NCBI GenBank assembly: GCA_033763315.1
Contig: JANRKS010000009.1
Coordinates: forward strand, 64,001 to 128,000
Direction: 5' to 3'
Length of the DNA: 64,000 nucleotides
Origin: Deltaproteobacteria bacterium
GTDB lineage: Bacteria; Myxococcota_A; Polyangia; Fen-1088
Of the stretch, positions 3,861 to 10,593 are shown piece by piece. The first letter of the stretch is position 1; each line of letters begins with the position of its first letter. The notes beneath the pieces were generated by a model that was given only the letters and a program-made list of their open reading frames with translations, ran no database searches and had not been told where the DNA came from. The position numbers and the translations under genes were made by a program.

Positions 3861-4697
3861 TCAGTGAGTCCCGTCGATGCTGTATTGTCTGAATTTCTCG
3901 TTGGGGGTCAAGTAGTCTATAGCGCTGTGGGGTCGGTTCTCGTTGTAGTCCTTTCTGTACATCTCAATGATCACCGCAGCTTCGCGGCGATTGTGAAAGA
4001 CTTCCTGATTCAAACATTCTTCTCGAAGGCGGCCATTGAAGCTTTCGATGAAGCCATTCTGCCAAGGCTTCCCAGGCTGGATGTATGCAGTTTGAACGCC
4101 TGTGGCCGCTAACCACGCTTTGACTGCTTTGGCGATGAACTCTGGGCCGTTGTCGCTGCGGATGAACCGCGGTACTCCTCGTTCTGCGAAGAGCCTCGCC
4201 AAAACCGCAATGACATTCGAGGACTTCAAGGAGCCGCGGACCTCTGCAGCCAAACTTTGACGTGTGCACTCATCAGATATGGTGAGGCACTTGATCTTCT
4301 GCCCATTCATGCAGTTGTCGTGGACAAAATCGTAAGCCCATACATCGTTGGGCCTGGACGCAACGAGCTGTCGTGGGTCCTTCTTCGTCCCGCGCCGTTT
4401 CCTTCGTCTTCTCGGAACTTGCAGGCCCGCTTTTCGCCATAGTCGGTGAACTCGGTGCACGCCGAGAGTGAAGCCACCCCGACGCAGGTAATGCCGGGCC
4501 ATGCGGTACCCAAGCCGCGGATGCTTGTACGAGAAGTCGCGTAGACGCTTCAAGGGCTCTTCGTCGCGCCTGTCCATCTTGCTCTCGTAGCCAAGCCATG
4601 ATCGAGAAACGCCAACTAGCGCGCAAGCCCTTCGGCAAGAAAGGCCGCCGCTGCGCAGAAACCAAACCTGCGCGCGGCGGACTTGCGCGCTTACCAT
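3861..4697 (-). CDS. IS3 OrfB DDE transposase
   Basis: [40 protein letters not shown]. Confidence 0.95.
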
Positions 4698-4960
4698 TTT
4701 TTTCGGTTCAGCTCCTGAAGAAGATCGTTTTCAAGCACCTTCTCGGCCAACATCTTCTTCAGCCTGGCGTTCTCACCCTCAAGGTGCCGCAGACGTTTGG
4801 CATCAGGCACATCCATGCCGCCAAACTTTGCCTTCCAGCGGTAGAACGTCTGCTCGCTGATGCCGTGCTTCTTGCAGATGTCTTTCTGCGGGGCTTTACC
4901 GAGTTCGGCCTCACGCAGGATCCGAACAATTTGCTCCTCTTTGAAGACTTTCCGTTTCAT
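4691..4960 (-). CDS. IS3 OrfA (HTH plus leucine zipper)
   Basis: [14 protein letters not shown]...[18 protein letters not shown]...[14 protein letters not shown]. Confidence 0.95.
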
Positions 4961-5064
4961 TGCCCTTTGTCTGCCATTCTGCGGCAGAACTCACTTCCCC
5001 GGTGGCCCTAAATTTCGGGGGCAGGTCACCGGTGACATGCCTGGTTTCTTCGGGCCAGCAGTTA

Positions 5065-5300
5065 CTAGACAGCGCCTTGGTCGGGGCGGCCATCCACTTC
5101 CAGCGTCCTCTCGATGAGTGCGGCGGAGGCCGCAAGATGCTCGATGCGAATTTCTCGCAGAAGCGCGCACTGCTCGGCCGTGAGCTTGCGCCACCGTCCT
5201 CGCTCGCCACGCGACTTGGGCCGAAGCGCTTGCACGCCGCCCCCTTTAGGCGCATAGAGCCAGCGTTCAAGCGTCGACACTGAATACTCCGATCGAATGC
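5065..5300 (-). pseudogene. N-terminal HTH fragment of Mu-like DDE transposase (likely partner of the ExeA remnant)
   Basis: YSVSTLERWLYAPKGGGVQALRPKSRGERGRWRKLTAEQCALLREIRIEHLAASAALIERTLEVDGR, then a premature stop. Confidence 0.65.
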
Positions 5301-5458
5301 CACCGATCGAGTTGGTCTCAGTTTTGGTGAGCGACGATCGCCCCGGCGTTGTCAGGGCGGCTCTCCGCCTCCTCCTCATCCCAGGATTCGGGCTACCCTC
5401 AGCTTCTATCGACCCGCTGCGACGGGCCTATGGCCGTGTCCTTTCATCACGGCACGGT

Positions 5459-5810
5459 TCAAAGCGCCTCGTGGCGCACGATGTCCCAGGACCAAACTTG
5501 CCCAGGCCCAGTCGCCAGTAGCTCTGGCTTGGAAAACACGGTTAAACGGCGCTGTCGCCGACGCTCACAAACCTCGTGATTCGCCGCCAAGATTCGATAC
5601 ATCGTGCACAACGAACACAAATACTTGCCTTCGTCGAGCAGCCGCGCAAACACCTCCGTCGGCGCCAGCGCTTGTTTAGGCCGCCTTTTTCTTGATGGCG
5701 GTCGCGCGGCACTGTCGCGATGGCGATAGAACGTGGCGCGCCAGGCCAATGGCTGCGTATGCGCCAACGATTGTCAACGCGGGTCCATGCTCCTTGAAGA
5801 CCGCAATCAT
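5459..5810 (-). pseudogene. IS3 OrfB N-terminal remnant
   Basis: RATFYR...APTEVFARLLDEGKYLCS..TMYRIL...KPELLATGPGQVWSWDI; frameshifted, internally deleted and truncated. Confidence 0.8.
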
Positions 5811-5855
5811 GGCTTGTCGCTCCCCAGCGGTCGTCCCAAGAGAGCCGCGACTTTC

Positions 5856-7232
5856 CTAAGAAACTTCCCCCTCCGAGCTTGGAACCAGTTGGAAGCCCAG
5901 ACTACCTGCGCGCCTGCGAAGATTGTCGAGGGTCCGTTGGCGAAATCTTTCTTCGTGGTAGTCGGCACCCGGATCGACGTGGGCCGCCCCATGCTTAAGC
6001 GTGTTGTAGAAGAGCACGGCAATCTTGCGGGCCGTCGCAGTGACTGCTTTCGACTTTCCGACGCGGGCTGCAAGCCTACGGAAAAAGGCGCCCAGCGCTG
6101 TTTGCGTTTTGCCCACTGAAAGCGCGCACATCCGAAGTAGCACGCCGGCGCGGTTCGAGGAGCGTCGGGTCCGCGAACTGAGCACCTTACCGCCGGATAT
6201 CTCGCTGCCCGGGGCGAGAGTGAGCCACGACGTGAAGGGCTTGGCCGTAGGCCAGCGGGTCATATCGGTGCCGGTGCCGCACTCCCCGACGAGGCGCAGT
6301 GCTGAATACGGTCCAAGTCCATGAATTTGAGTAAGATCGACACCTCCTTTGAGGGTGTAGACTGCGGACCGCACGTCAAAATCAGGCTCGTTTCTACCTG
6401 GAGACTTCCTCCGAGGCTGGGGCATAACTTCCTTAGGCAGTGCACTCCGTTCATTCAAAGCAGCCAGGCAGCATTCGACCTCGACGTCACAGTCGCGCAT
6501 CCTCGCCTGATAGAAGTCGTAAAATTCGACAGCCTGACGAAGCTCAAACATATGCTCGGGACGGAAGTTGCCGGTGAGCGCTTCGCTGATTGTCTGCACG
6601 GATGCCTTGCAGCGCGGGTCACGGAACTGTGCCAAGGTCGCAGGCTGTCTTTCTCCATCGATGATCGCGCGAATGAGCTTCATTCCCGTTACGCCCGTTA
6701 CGTCGCTCACGACGTGGTAGAGTTGAAGATTTATCTGCATGAGTGCTTTCTGGATGTGCTGGACATGCGAGGCCGCGTACTCCACTAGGCCATCGCGAGT
6801 ACGCAGGTATGCCCTCAACGCAGTGATCTTCTCGTGTGGGCGGAAACTCCCCCGAACCAACCCGTACGCATGCAGCTGCTGGATTCACTGGGCGTCGTTC
6901 ACGTCAGTCTTCCGCCCAGGAACATTTTTGGCATCGCGTGCATTGACCAGCACTACCTCGAACCCCCGAGCTTCTAGGATCTCGTAGATGGCAACCTAGT
7001 AGATGCTTGTCGACTCGATCGCGATGGTCGTGATGCCGAGGTCCTTGAGCCAGTCGCCTAGGCGATAAAGATCTCCTGTAAAGCTTCGGAATGTGCGAAC
7101 CGGCTGCTGATCTGCATCCCGCGGCACGGCCACCACGTGGAAAGTTGCCCCGATGTCGATTCCAGCGGCATGCCTATGGACAATCGGCAGCCCAGCTTCG
7201 TCCCCTCTTTTCGTCTTACCCTTCGTCGCCAT
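5856..7232 (-). pseudogene. IS110 DEDD transposase/recombinase with two nonsense codons
   Basis: AGIDIG, IAIEST, PGRKTDVNDAQ and ISGGK motifs; in-frame stops at two expected Trp positions (IY*VA at 6996-6998 and DAQ*IQQ); RBS AGGAGG upstream. Confidence 0.9.
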
Positions 7233-7259
7233 GATTCCCTCCTGTTTAGATGAGGAGAT

Positions 7260-7420
7260 GGAAAGCGAGGCTGCGCATTGAATCACTTTCCTAAACGGGA
7301 TCGCCCCGGAGCGTCACCACTTCCAAGCACGCAGCAGCCTCGGGACCATGTTTTTTTCGGGATCGTTGTCGTCACCAAAAAGTGTGCGGCCGCTCGTTCC
7401 AACTCAGGTCAATCGTACAC
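7260..7420 (-). ncRNA. Candidate IS110 bridge RNA in the left end
   Basis: Two copies of GGTGACG-N(4/8)-CGATCCCG (7358-7376, 7296-7318); 9-bp stem 7266-7274 with 7334-7342 encloses the second copy; location matches where IS110-group elements encode bridge RNA. Boundaries are approximate. Confidence 0.65.
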
Positions 7421-7455
7421 GAGTTTCTCGAACCACAGGCAGGAGCGCCGCTCCT

Positions 7456-7804
7456 TTTGTAGCGCAACCAGCGCCTCGGCATGCTCGGCGCGCGCAGTGG
7501 CTTTATGGAGCTGCTTCTCCAGCTCAGCGATCTTGCGGTTGCGTTCATCAACGACCTTGGCTTTGCGGCCCCTCTTCTTAGGGGCCAGCAGCTCGCCACG
7601 CTCCCGGGCTCGGCGCCAATCGACCAGCTGCGAGGAGAAAAGTCCCTCGCGCCGCAACTGCGCCCCAATCTCGCCAGACGCCTTACAGGCGTCGGCTTGC
7701 CGCACTATCTCAAGCTTGTATTGCGCCGTAAATCGGCGCCGTTTTACTTTGGCCGACACCTGCACATCGCGCAGCTTTTCGGTCCCATTGAGAACATTTT
7801 CCAT
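7456..7804 (-). pseudogene. IS3 OrfA, interrupted near its 3' end by IS110
   Basis: KRRRFTAQYKLEIVRQADAC..GEIGAQLRREGLFSSQLVDWRR...LVALQK. Confidence 0.85.
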
Positions 7805-7871
7805 GAGTCATCCAATCACCGCCCTGGTGTCTAAATTCCCGGTCAGTGCCTGTCTCATCCAACCTGGCACA

Positions 7872-8212
7872 GAGGTCCATCGGCATGCGCACATTGCCGA
7901 CCACCGCTGGCGAAGATCTGCTTGCATTAGTTATGAGGCGTTACGAGCGTGCCAGCACCCTATTTACTCGAATCGTCCCGTTGAAGATTTGGGGCCGTCT
8001 GCTTGGCGACACCGCCGCGGTGGCCGCGATGCTTGACCGACTTCTGCACCATGGCCACGTCCTAAAGTGTGGTCTCAGAAGCTGGCGAACAAAACACCAC
8101 ACAAATTTGCAGCCGGAGCCTGTCTCCGCTTGCATGACGATGTCCCGGCCACTTTTCCTTTGGCCGGTTTTGAAGTGAGCATCTTTGGCCGGTTTTGAGG
8201 TGATCATCGAGG
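7872..8212 (+). mobile_element. IS21-family remnant: istB C-terminus and right end
   Basis: GEDLLALVMRRYERAST..SNRPVED.G.LLGDTAAVAAMLDRLLHHGHVLKCG.RSWR with compensating frameshifts; subterminal repeats TGGCCGGTTTTGA(A/G)GTGA at 8161 and 8186. Confidence 0.8.
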
Positions 8213-8250
8213 CGGACGCCCCTTGCTTCGTGTAACCTGGGGCCGCGTTA

Positions 8251-10593
8251 ATGAATACTAAGGTTCGCGCCGCGGCGGCCACAATACTCCTATTGCTCGG
8301 CCTGGTTTACTTTGCAGTCATCTTGAATCATCTGTATTCCGTCACGCGCTGGCTCGCGTGGCGCTATTTGATTCAGTGGTCGCTCGCCTCTTTTTGGACA
8401 TTCGGCTGCCTCTCCTTGGGACACTACTTGGTTCGCCACGTCCTTAAGCAGAAGTTCCCGGCGCGCGAACACGTTCTCTTGAGCTTGGCCACGGGTGTCC
8501 TCGCCTTTGGTTTGGTCCTGTTTAGCTGTGGTTTGTTGGGCGGTCTCAACGGCGTGTTCTTCCTCCTTTGCCCCTTCCTGCTGAGCTTGACATTCGGTCC
8601 GAGCTTCCTCGTGTACGCCAAGCGTCGCTGCATTCGTCTTGTACATTTGACCGCCGCCAATGGAAGAGCTGCGCTTTGGGGTGCAACAGCTCGCGTGTTC
8701 GGCTTGGCCGGCATCGCAATCATCGTTTTGCAGATTATGACGCCGCAGAACGTGGCCTTCGACGCTCACTGGTATCACGCGGCGATTGCAGAGTCTTACG
8801 CGGTGACAGGGCACATAAGACGTTTCAATGAGGGGTGGTTTCTCGGAACCTTGCCGCAACTTGCGACGTGGATCTACACCTGGGCTTTTCTCTGCCCCCG
8901 CGCTTCGTTGGCTTTTCGGATCGAGCTGGCCGCCCATCTCGAGCTTGTCTTGTTTCTGTTTACCTTGGCGGGTGTTGAGCCAACCGTTCGCTGGTTGCTT
9001 AAGGGAGAGGGCGCACGTGCGGCCTGGGTATCCGTCTTCTTGTTCCCGGGAATTTTCGTCTACGACTCAAACCTCAACCTATCGGCTGATCACATTCTCG
9101 GCTTCTGGACGTTGCCCGCCCTGTTGGTGGCACGACGCCTATTTCCGGTCGGCTCCGAGCAAATGGTTGGCATTCGTCGCTGCGTGCTTCTGGGTATCAT
9201 TTTGTCAGGTGCACTCCTCACCAAGTATCAGGTGCTTTATCTGGTGGTGGCTCTGACGTTCCTATTGTTTATGTCAACGTTTGATGACCTGTGGACTTCG
9301 CCGCGCGTTGCGAGGCCACGAATTGTCCTCTTGGCGTTTGCTCGGTTGTCGGTTGCGGGCGTTACCGTCGGCGTGTTGACGAGCCCGCACTGGCTAAAGA
9401 ACCTGATTTGGCATGGAAATCCCTTCTATCCATTCGCGCACAAGCTGTTCGGGGGCTTCCCCTGGACGGCTGGTACAGAGTTTCGCCTTCTGGATGCTGG
9501 CTGGACGCCCGAGGGCCCCCTTTGGGGGCGGTTAAAAGAGACGTTGGTCGCGTTGGCGTCTTTCTCTTTTAAGCCTCACGACTGGCCTGACTTTCACCGT
9601 GACCTTCCGATTTTCGGGTCCGTCTTTACCCTGATCATGATCCCTTGCTTGATCATTAAGCCACAGCGACGCCTATTTTCGCTGGCTTTGTCGACCCTTG
9701 TCGCGATTGGGACTTGGTATTGGACCTACCACCAGGATCGATACCTGCAATCGCTGTTGCCATGGATCGCCACTTTCACTGCAGCCGCTTTGGTCACCTT
9801 GTGGCGAACACAATCGCTGGCGATTCGCCTCGCACTGGTGAGCCTAATCGGCATCCAGCTAATTTGGGGATTCGAGCTTCCGGCTTTGCCAACCCACGCC
9901 ATGGCAGGCCGGTCGCCCATCATGTCAACGCTCGACCGGTTGTCTTCCGGTTACCGGGGCGACTGGGCCAATCGTGACGACCCTGCGACGAGTTTACCTC
10001 GCGTCGCGGCTCGGCTGCCAGAACGTGCCGTTGCCTTGCTGCATGAAGAGCACCTTCGATTGGGGCTTGGACACTGGATCGTGTCCGACAGCTTTGGTCG
10101 CCAAGGGGCCATTCGGTACCGCAACTGGGACACACGGAGGAGGGTCTACGACCGGCTAGCAGCACTCGGCGTCACACATATAATCCTGCGCGCAGAACCC
10201 ACCGGCGACTTTTCGTTGGCCGACAACATCGTGCTCTTTGACTTTCTGAAGGCGTTGCCTCTTGCGGCAGAGGTTGAGGGATACCGGATCTTTGAAATGA
10301 GGGACAGCCCAAGGTTGCAACCGACCGCCTACGCGGGGGCCCTGGTCGTCAAGTGCAACGGCGAGTTACGCACCGTCAGAACCGTCAAGTCTTTCGATAC
10401 GCTCGGCGGGTTTGCGAGCGATGATTGTGCCCCAGACCTTGGGCGTCTGGAATCAGCCTCTGCGCATGTTCGGTTTGTCATCGCGCCGCAAAAATTGAAT
10501 GCCCTAGGCGGTCGGCTGGGACCTAAATGGCAACAACTATTTTCGCACTCCGATGTCCTGGTATTTGCACGGGTGGCTGATAATGAATCCTAG
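8251..10593 (+). CDS. Polytopic membrane protein, probable GT-C fold glycosyltransferase
   Basis: Many TM segments; loop motif FDAHWYH; LLTKY; W.KN..WHGNPFYPF; QDRYL; soluble C-terminal domain. Confidence 0.65.
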   Translation: MNTKVRAAAATILLLLGLVYFAVILNHLYSVTRWLAWRYLIQWSLASFWTFGCLSLGHYLVRHVLKQKFPAREHVLLSLATGVLAFGLVLFSCGLLGGLNGVFFLLCPFLLSLTFGPSFLVYAKRRCIRLVHLTAANGRAALWGATARVFGLAGIAIIVLQIMTPQNVAFDAHWYHAAIAESYAVTGHIRRFNEGWFLGTLPQLATWIYTWAFLCPRASLAFRIELAAHLELVLFLFTLAGVEPTVRWLLKGEGARAAWVSVFLFPGIFVYDSNLNLSADHILGFWTLPALLVARRLFPVGSEQMVGIRRCVLLGIILSGALLTKYQVLYLVVALTFLLFMSTFDDLWTSPRVARPRIVLLAFARLSVAGVTVGVLTSPHWLKNLIWHGNPFYPFAHKLFGGFPWTAGTEFRLLDAGWTPEGPLWGRLKETLVALASFSFKPHDWPDFHRDLPIFGSVFTLIMIPCLIIKPQRRLFSLALSTLVAIGTWYWTYHQDRYLQSLLPWIATFTAAALVTLWRTQSLAIRLALVSLIGIQLIWGFELPALPTHAMAGRSPIMSTLDRLSSGYRGDWANRDDPATSLPRVAARLPERAVALLHEEHLRLGLGHWIVSDSFGRQGAIRYRNWDTRRRVYDRLAALGVTHIILRAEPTGDFSLADNIVLFDFLKALPLAAEVEGYRIFEMRDSPRLQPTAYAGALVVKCNGELRTVRTVKSFDTLGGFASDDCAPDLGRLESASAHVRFVIAPQKLNALGGRLGPKWQQLFSHSDVLVFARVADNES

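Follow-up and report, generated by a model that had tools for sequence, protein, structure and literature searches.

The minus-strand segment 7399-7258 of the window, i.e. of the whole 64,000-nucleotide stretch of DNA analysed here, can with high confidence be regarded, on comparative sequence grounds, as the gene for the bridge RNA (seekRNA) of an insertion sequence of the IS110 family. This two-loop non-coding RNA gene lies upstream of the transposase ATG at 7232 and on the same strand. Its product, as judged by comparison with homologues, consists of a closing stem holding two stem-loops. By analogy with IS621, loop 1 of the RNA in complex with the transposase would pair with an A-run target and loop 2 with the excised element at its joined ends; strand exchange would take place at an AA core, and a few extra bases in the loops would act as handshake guides once strands have been exchanged. 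A bispecific guide RNA with two loops, the first for the target and the second for the donor, was the core of the original prediction, and it is upheld by the fold and by the covariation of both loop-1 strands, of the right end and of the handshake bases. The strings of sequence quoted in that prediction all lie on the minus strand where it had placed them.

The element and its host

The IS110-family element (5853-7454, minus strand, about 1.6 kb) sits in a decayed IS3 element and was found as a single copy in a search of the 7.6-Mb assembly. Its right end, ...GTTTCTTAGG followed by AA, is reached at 5853 and is conserved in relatives. The left border is approximate (7455-7451); homology to a related IS3 copy of the same genome (contig C23) ends at 7455. 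The right end (5853-5865) comprises an inverted-repeat copy AGTTTCT (5865-5859), an overlapping TTAGG (5859-5855) and the core AA (5854-5853). Its left counterpart AGAAACT (7422-7428) is the best inverted repeat with the right end, 7 nt long, and covaries in relatives. The left junction (7442-7460), ACAAAA-GGA-GCGGCGCTCC, is aberrant, being devoid of the AA core and of the C with which left ends begin.

The transposase pseudogene (5856-7232, minus strand) starts with the ATG at 7232 and contains the DEDD_Tnp_IS110 (PF01548, 5.7e-19) and Transposase_20 (PF02371, 8e-09) domains of Pfam; it also passes the NCBIfam model NF033542, 'IS110 family RNA-guided transposase', with 219 bits at a cut-off of 140. 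The frame is not intact, as it is interrupted by an in-frame TAG at 6998-6996 (codon 79) and a TGA at 6887-6885 (codon 116), both at positions that are tryptophan (W) in relatives; the natural stop falls within the conserved right end, 3 bases from the end of the element. Among solved structures, a protein sequence search returned no transposase-related chain at E <= 0.001, and a profile search gave just four weak, unrelated chains at E <= 1 (best 0.079). The ATG is preceded by GGAGGG (7237-7242, minus strand), a Shine-Dalgarno-like sequence by inference of function, whose GGAG block is conserved in the alignment of relatives described below. No sigma-70 consensus promoter was found in 5700-7600. 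A TTG..C / TA.. motif was noticed by eye in the left end, and the element as a whole lies in a patch of decayed insertion sequences.

IS3-family elements shift frame at A-runs (A_AAA_AAG sites). The IS3-type orfA of the host element (HTH_Tnp_1; 7455-7804, minus strand) is interrupted at its own A-run frameshift site: it extends to the insertion point and its frame continues directly beyond the IS110-family element, in the right flank AGTCGCGG (5845-5852, minus strand), where the interrupted IS3 reading frame picks up again (...KVAALLG...). At the corresponding site of the related IS3 copy on contig C23 the sequence is CTAC-A8-GTGG, unoccupied, and its A-run is what we take to be the IS3-family frameshift site.

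Fold of the RNA and its conservation in relatives

In the window RNA, all of it on the minus strand, the closing stem P1 would be formed by a 5′ strand at 7395-7399 and a 3′ strand at 7261-7265, the latter placed by comparison of the fold with homologues; four of the five P1 pairs form in the window. Loop 1, the putative target-binding loop (7344-7391), has a base stem (7391-7387 with 7348-7344) and a capping hairpin (7377-7358) that leave a 5′ guide CACACUUUU (7386-7378) and a 3′ guide AAAAAAACA (7357-7349) facing each other. Loop 2, the putative donor-binding loop (7267-7341), is enclosed by the stem CGAGGCTGC/GCAGCCTCG (7341-7334 with 7274-7267), which the original prediction had drawn and in which 8/8 pairs form; it is capped by a hairpin at 7319-7296, with a 5′ strand at 7333-7320 and a 3′ strand at 7295-7275, the latter containing UUAGGAA (7294-7288) and the handshake AG (7287-7286). 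The scaffold GGTGACG..CGATCCCG occurs twice in the window (7376-7358 and 7318-7296) and in none of 100 dinucleotide shuffles, so that the repeat itself, also part of the original prediction, stands; its identity in both loops turned out to be peculiar to the window copy. The part shared family-wide is shorter, each stem-loop having an internal loop that is capped by a UGG.G...CCCG hairpin.

The predicted fold of the window RNA taken as a single sequence is no better than that of shuffles (z -0.8), and the covariance models of Rfam gave no match at E <= 1 in 5000-8600. The single-sequence fold being uninformative and Rfam silent on this region, the case rests on relatives. A scan of one genome per species yielded 13 loci among 56 candidate stretches, and a profile scan of metagenome contigs counted at least 498 relatives in 599 stretches, and the top 80 were retained. 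Relatives are also present in 423 plasmid records, annotated merely as 'IS110 family transposase'; an intact copy in a cultured host is that of plasmid pDSHI01 of Dinoroseobacter shibae DFL 12. Loci were kept if they contained the motif CC[CG]N-TTAGGAA and at least 230 nt upstream; after removal of seven exact duplicates and one near-duplicate, the alignment consisted of 56 sequences, including that of the window. In the same taxonomic order, a relative of the transposase at E <= 1e-40 was found in 5/88 other genomes, none of them close. As delimited by such sequence matches, the RNA family is large, being found in metagenomes, on plasmids and, for the 13 loci of the species scan, in MAG records whose titles name Nannocystaceae, Alphaproteobacteria, cyanobacteria and Planctomycetales.

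The fold proposed by RNAalifold for the alignment has a closing stem and two stem-loops, the second of them capped by a hairpin, and shows compensatory changes in 18 of its 29 pairs. The structure that was tested is a hand-edited version of 31 pairs in five helices, obtained by dropping two doubtful pairs and by adding the loop-1 cap and one closing-stem pair; the RNAalifold pair 127-197 / 128-196 was excluded from it as a likely clade effect. In this structure 94.8% of 1736 cells are paired and 17 of the 31 pairs have changes on both sides, while 0/500 shuffles reach any of the five measures considered and slid controls gave 34-51%. According to a tally of the pair table, G-U pairs account for about 287 of the 1736 cells; since they would be A-C mismatches on the other strand, their frequency indicates that the transposase strand is the transcribed one.

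A covariance model derived from the other 55 sequences, with the window excluded, matches 7399-7258 over its full length with 111.9 bits (E 1.1e-25), the runner-up in the window scoring 14.9 bits, and this segment is its sole match in the 7.6-Mb genome. The window RNA forms 29 of the 31 family pairs, one of the two exceptions being an alignment shift at its longer loop-1 cap. The original prediction had expected a fold conserved among homologues, and this expectation agrees with the recovery of the window by the model as well as with the compensatory changes.

Guide strands, target and donor

That loop 1 reads the target is supported by sequence covariation of both its strands with the flanks. 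The 3′ strand, between CCCG and the base stem, equals 5 nt of left flank, then the AA core, then base 1 of the element, and would pair with the bottom strand. In 48 unique loci it is identical to left-flank positions LT-1 to LT-5 in 48, 48, 48, 46 and 31 cases, against permuted means of 44.2, 40.5, 37.5, 35.6 and 19.8, with identities within the A-run being inflated, as the left border was mostly placed via the guide. At most 2 of 2000 permutations reach such values, although, here as below, permutation counts overstate significance because the relatives are not independent. For the variant loci and for ten loci that were re-placed, it is homology of the left end, and not the guide, that fixes the border. 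A flank CAGCAAAC goes with a guide AAGCAAAC in L017, as opposed to CAGGAAAC with AAGGAAAC in L014 and L016, variants that depart from plain A, and the guides TTTGACAAC, TTTGAAAAC, TTAAGAAAC and CTTAAAAAC are each identical to their own adjoining flank. The 3′ strand next carries C, the first base of the element (LE1), which is invariant in both RNA and DNA; the base after that agrees with position 2 of the element (LE2) in 22 of 48 loci, where permutation gives 15.9 (50/2000).

In the loop-1 5′ strand, variable bases precede a U-run; the strand is complementary to the A-run (top strand) and to the right flank. Contiguous Watson-Crick runs past the U-run average 2.57, compared with 1.18 in permuted pairs (0/2000; 46 loci), three registers having been allowed for the real pairs and likewise in the permutations. 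In L094, 12 contiguous bases of this strand match.

These results also bear on the idea that the RNA is nothing but a structured 5′ leader for translational control of the transposase and that it matches the flanks by chance or through A-rich sequence. Such a leader would be in keeping with the closing-stem 3′ strand, which is CCUCC-like and could pair with the downstream GGAGG ribosome-binding site, and with single-sequence folding being no better than for shuffles. It leaves unexplained that guides departing from plain A match their own flanks, that right-flank covariation is matched in 0/2000 permutations and that changes in loop 2 and the right end compensate each other (see below). A leader role could coexist with a guide role; taken as the explanation of the RNA in its own right, it is very improbable.

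As for the sites that a target-reading loop 1 would select, an A-run of 6-8 extends through the core, where the crossover is placed, in 40 of 46 reconstructed sites. Among upstream flank peptides of at least 40 residues, 22 of 38 match HTH_Tnp_1 (IS3-type OrfA), and further ones match N-terminal domains of transposases of the IS630 type and others; the flank peptides end in ...ERDILKK, ...LVLSKK, ...IIEIQKK or ...TFKK. Given the A-runs in 40 of the 46 sites and the transposase peptides in the flanks, the family mostly lands in the slippery A-run of other insertion sequences, and its preferred targets appear to be mostly A6-8 slippery sites within transposase genes similar to those of IS3 and IS630. 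Insertion at the A-run would cut the frameshift site of the other element. The reading of the loop strings ACTTTTT and AAAAAAA as fitting an A-run slippery site, put forward in the original prediction, is in line with the A6-8 of these 40 sites and with the A8 of the IS3 copy on contig C23. In the accessible portions of the literature there is no report of frameshift-site targeting by IS110 elements, the supplements of PMC11208160 and PMC11187229 being places where the family or its targets may already be listed; the accessible portion of the preprint 10.64898/2026.10.21.760802 makes no mention of IS1111, guide order or IS3.

The ends of the element are uniform across the family. The right end is ...GTTTCTTAGGAA in 51/51 loci whose contig reaches it (53 tabulated), with its TTAGGAA part fixed by locus selection, and the left end begins with C after the A-run in 53/53 loci. 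Two short metagenome contigs, L027 and L032, contain a TTAGG-AA-C junction between right and left end, as expected of a circle or a tandem dimer; the junction of L027 contains no sigma-70 consensus promoter. As AA is the sole dinucleotide common to left, right and joined junctions, it was taken as the core. The best inverted repeat measures 5-17 nt, mostly 6-10, with a mean of 7.87 against 6.25 for permuted pairs (0/200). Where it is the AGAAAC repeat, extended by 0-11 bases, its left copy is found 27-42 nt into the left end, and the complement begins 5-9 nt from the right end. This subterminal repeat covaries (AGAAACTC/GAGTTTCT, AGAAGCTC/GAGCTTCT and AGAAACTT/AAGTTTCT) and reaches 16-17 nt in L014-L017.

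Donor reading by loop 2 is supported for its 3′ strand, whose UUAGGAA equals the TTAGG of the right end plus the AA core. Since the loci were selected by CC[CG]N-TTAGGAA, the invariance of UUAGGAA in the alignment is partly due to selection, and loci without the motif were therefore revisited (L022 left out). In these, a right end CATAGGAA goes with loop 2 UAUAGGAA (L045 and L047), and a right end CTTGGGAA with loop 2 UUUGGGAA (L097), which, as read from the sequences, are two independent compensated changes of loop 2 and right end. The original prediction had proposed to test loop bases for covariation with target and donor, and such covariation is observed for loop 1 with both flanks and for loop 2 with the right end. 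In the window itself, loop 2 matches the right end and its flank at 10/10 positions (TTAGGAAAGT), better than the 6 of 7 initially claimed for the resemblance to the right-end junction, because five bases of the end, two of the core, two of the handshake and one chance base add up.

The two bases after UUAGGAA follow the right flank, i.e. DNA that is not loop 2's own. At the first of them (RT1) 35/45 loci match, against 29.3 in permutations (1/2000); at the second (RT2) there are 17/45 Watson-Crick matches against 10.7 (14/2000), or 28/45 against 17.6 (1/2000) when G-U pairs are counted; at RT3 no signal was detected with respect to the right flank in the 45 loci. The AAAGT after TTAGGAA is core-adjacent flank read as a handshake, and not donor.

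The same composition of the 3′ strands suggests another reading, in which the loops read the two junctions of the integrated element, for excision or circle formation, rather than capturing target and donor. Indeed, the loop-1 3′ strand is left flank, core and first base of the element, the loop-2 3′ strand is right end, core and the first two bases of the flank, and circle formation by ISEc21 reportedly needs flanking target bases and the non-coding region (PMC11187229). This reading is unlikely in view of the loop-1 5′ strand, which is complementary to the right flank and not to the left end and so fits an uninterrupted target, and of the extra bases, which number just one or two, like the handshake guides of IS621 (PMC11208158). 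Both roles are compatible with each other, and target and donor reading is retained here as the principal one.

A partner for the other strand of loop 2 was sought as well. The loop-2 5′ strand is 14 nt long, GCGGACUUG being conserved and followed by 3-4 variable bases. Neither mutual information nor complementarity with left-end positions 1-14 gave a consistent diagonal, nor did per-column complementarity to right flank, left end and left flank. Longest exact matches, in sense and antisense orientation, with 45 nt of left end and 42 nt of right end were mostly no better than in permuted pairs, the sense match to the left end reaching 4.39 against 4.16 (7/300). A same-sense resemblance of this strand to the right end, and to the part of the left end before the repeat, was considered and dropped as inconsistent by eye. 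Thus, the initial statement that the variable parts of the loops resemble target and donor holds for both strands of loop 1 and for the 3′ strand of loop 2, and not for the loop-2 5′ strand, for which no partner was found in these comparisons.

When the guides of the window copy are laid on its own site, the right junction fits, with the handshake AG facing a flank AG and the loop-1 5′ strand suiting the AAAGT of the site. On the left, the loop-1 3′ strand (A7-C-A) predicts a junction ...AAAAAAA|C that the observed ACAAAA-GGA-GCGG does not fit. The left end is about 5-8 nt shorter than those of the closest relatives, and alignment with ten relatives is compatible with a deletion of about 8 nt or with substitutions at the left border. 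The unoccupied IS3 copy on C23 (A8-GTGG) suits the loop-1 strands slightly better than the site actually occupied. On account of the two stops in the transposase, of the lack of a second copy and of the left tip without core, the window copy is regarded as a fossil. One may ask whether it is still used, i.e. whether its RNA is produced and acts together with a transposase provided in trans, since it retains all family-invariant positions and scores 111.9 bits. Such continued use is hardly to be expected: in its own genome there is no second copy of the element, no other encoded relative of the transposase at E <= 1e-40 and no second match to the RNA, absences that are not proven because the genome is 90.85% complete. 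Furthermore, the left tip is devoid of the core and first bases, so that the element could not be recognized as a donor.

Comparison with known systems and meaning for the family

The comparisons that follow draw on three publications on IS110-family guide RNAs (PMC11208160, PMC11208158 and PMC11187229). With IS621 (PMC11208160, PMC11208158) the family shares an RNA upstream of the gene of a DEDD/Tnp recombinase, internal loops for target and donor, a core dinucleotide read by both strands and a two-base extension that matches non-cognate DNA; in IS621, once strands have been exchanged, two bases located 3′ of the right guides pair with the non-cognate DNA. The guides are ordered differently. 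[quoted passage not shown] Further differences are the core (AA here, CT in IS621), the length of the subterminal inverted repeat (6-17 bp here, 2-3 bp in IS621) and the guide for the right donor half, which was not found here.

[quoted passage not shown] The present family resembles it in the upstream non-coding region, in the matches to both strands of the target and in being an insertion sequence that targets another, but the top-strand match lies 5′ of the bottom-strand match. The latter order is that of the IS1111-type elements ISEc11, ISPa11 and ISKpn4, which carry their non-coding region and RNA on the downstream side of the transposase gene (PMC11187229); long subterminal repeats are the hallmark of the IS1111 group (PMC11208160). 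The family is like the IS1111-type seekRNAs in this order of matches and in subterminal inverted repeats of several bases (7-17 bp in that type; 5-17 nt, mostly 6-10, here), and unlike them in having its RNA upstream, with the transposase stop located in the right end. The strand logic is shared with the known cases, the left half being read via the bottom strand and the right half via the top strand.

Since the strand order is mirrored, the roles of the strands relative to the transposase gene are probably swapped, and we infer by analogy that the complex may work like that of IS621, the DNA being rotated by 180 degrees with respect to the gene. The RNA is of a known kind, and what sets it apart is a variant architecture at the level of the family together with an unusual choice of target. 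Whether this amounts to a third architecture of IS110-family guide RNAs, and the family to a specialized parasite of other insertion sequences via the A-run of their programmed frameshift site, the one sequence they can hardly change, is a tentative proposal that we hold with somewhat more doubt than confidence. Its apparent traits would be the upstream RNA, the IS1111-type strand order, the mirrored handshake and a long, asymmetrically placed subterminal inverted repeat. If it is correct, guide order evolved independently of where on the circle the crossover site lies, and something other than a loop strand may recognize the right donor half.

Bridge RNAs are under development as programmable recombination tools, with few architectures tested so far, and the family shows that guide order is separable from RNA position. 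Natural intact members are abundant for tests of the mirrored arrangement, given the at least 498 metagenome relatives and the 423 plasmid records mentioned above. Taken alone, the window copy is ordinary, a dead element. It is at the level of the family that one insertion sequence is found to use an RNA guide against the conserved frameshift site of others, and by inserting there the invader would silence the host element and gain landing sites that are numerous, safe and repeated.

Insertion-sequence surroundings of the element

The IS110-family relic lies within a decayed IS3-type element, which is adjoined by two overlapping open reading frames of 89 and 278 amino acids (window 3861-4960, minus strand). 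These resemble an orfA-orfB pair and would form another, putative IS3-type element beside the decayed one, which would make the region an insertion-sequence cluster. On another contig of the source genome, a related IS3 copy (L007, G000:C23:134600-135700), 73% identical, retains an intact and unoccupied A8 frameshift site, which matches the loop-1 (target-binding) strands of the window element.

Joined ends and tandem copies among relatives

In two short metagenome contigs (L027:1-1729 and L032:1-1695) the right end is fused to the left end as TTAGG-AA-C..., and the identical junction is found close to each contig end, at a spacing of about 1.6 kb; such a pattern would be expected if the element were present as a circular intermediate or a tandem dimer. 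Another locus (L085:1-3993) carries two element copies in tandem, separated by 34 bp, each in its own A-run of one IS630-like gene. In L090 the first site appears empty, yet its right flank is that of the first site, probably as the result of assembly collapse.

Subterminal repeats and the guide RNA

Near their two ends, the window element (7422-7428 and 5859-5865) and its relatives carry inverted copies of a subterminal repeat, AGAAAC.. on the left and ..GTTTCT on the right, which covary with each other. The left copy, some 30-40 nt into the element, follows a small covarying hairpin of the CCGCC-TGTR-GGCGG type.

Among the relatives, L065 and L100 are 5'-truncated copies, in which unrelated DNA, starting within the base stem, substitutes for the sequence upstream of loop 1. 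L070 and L076 show a guide deletion, the A-run being gone from the loop-1 3' strand (CCCGUAACAUGG), while the RNA is conserved elsewhere and the insertion site is a normal CCA7.

The stretch from the closing-stem 3' strand to the ribosome-binding site (window 7237-7265, minus strand) corresponds to columns 220-255 of A2, the alignment of 56 guide-RNA regions. The 3' strand is CCUCC-like, and the transposase gene's ribosome-binding site, GGAGG, located about 20 nt downstream, could, by base complementarity, be its alternative pairing partner. If this candidate pairing is true, translation of the transposase would be tied to RNA folding.
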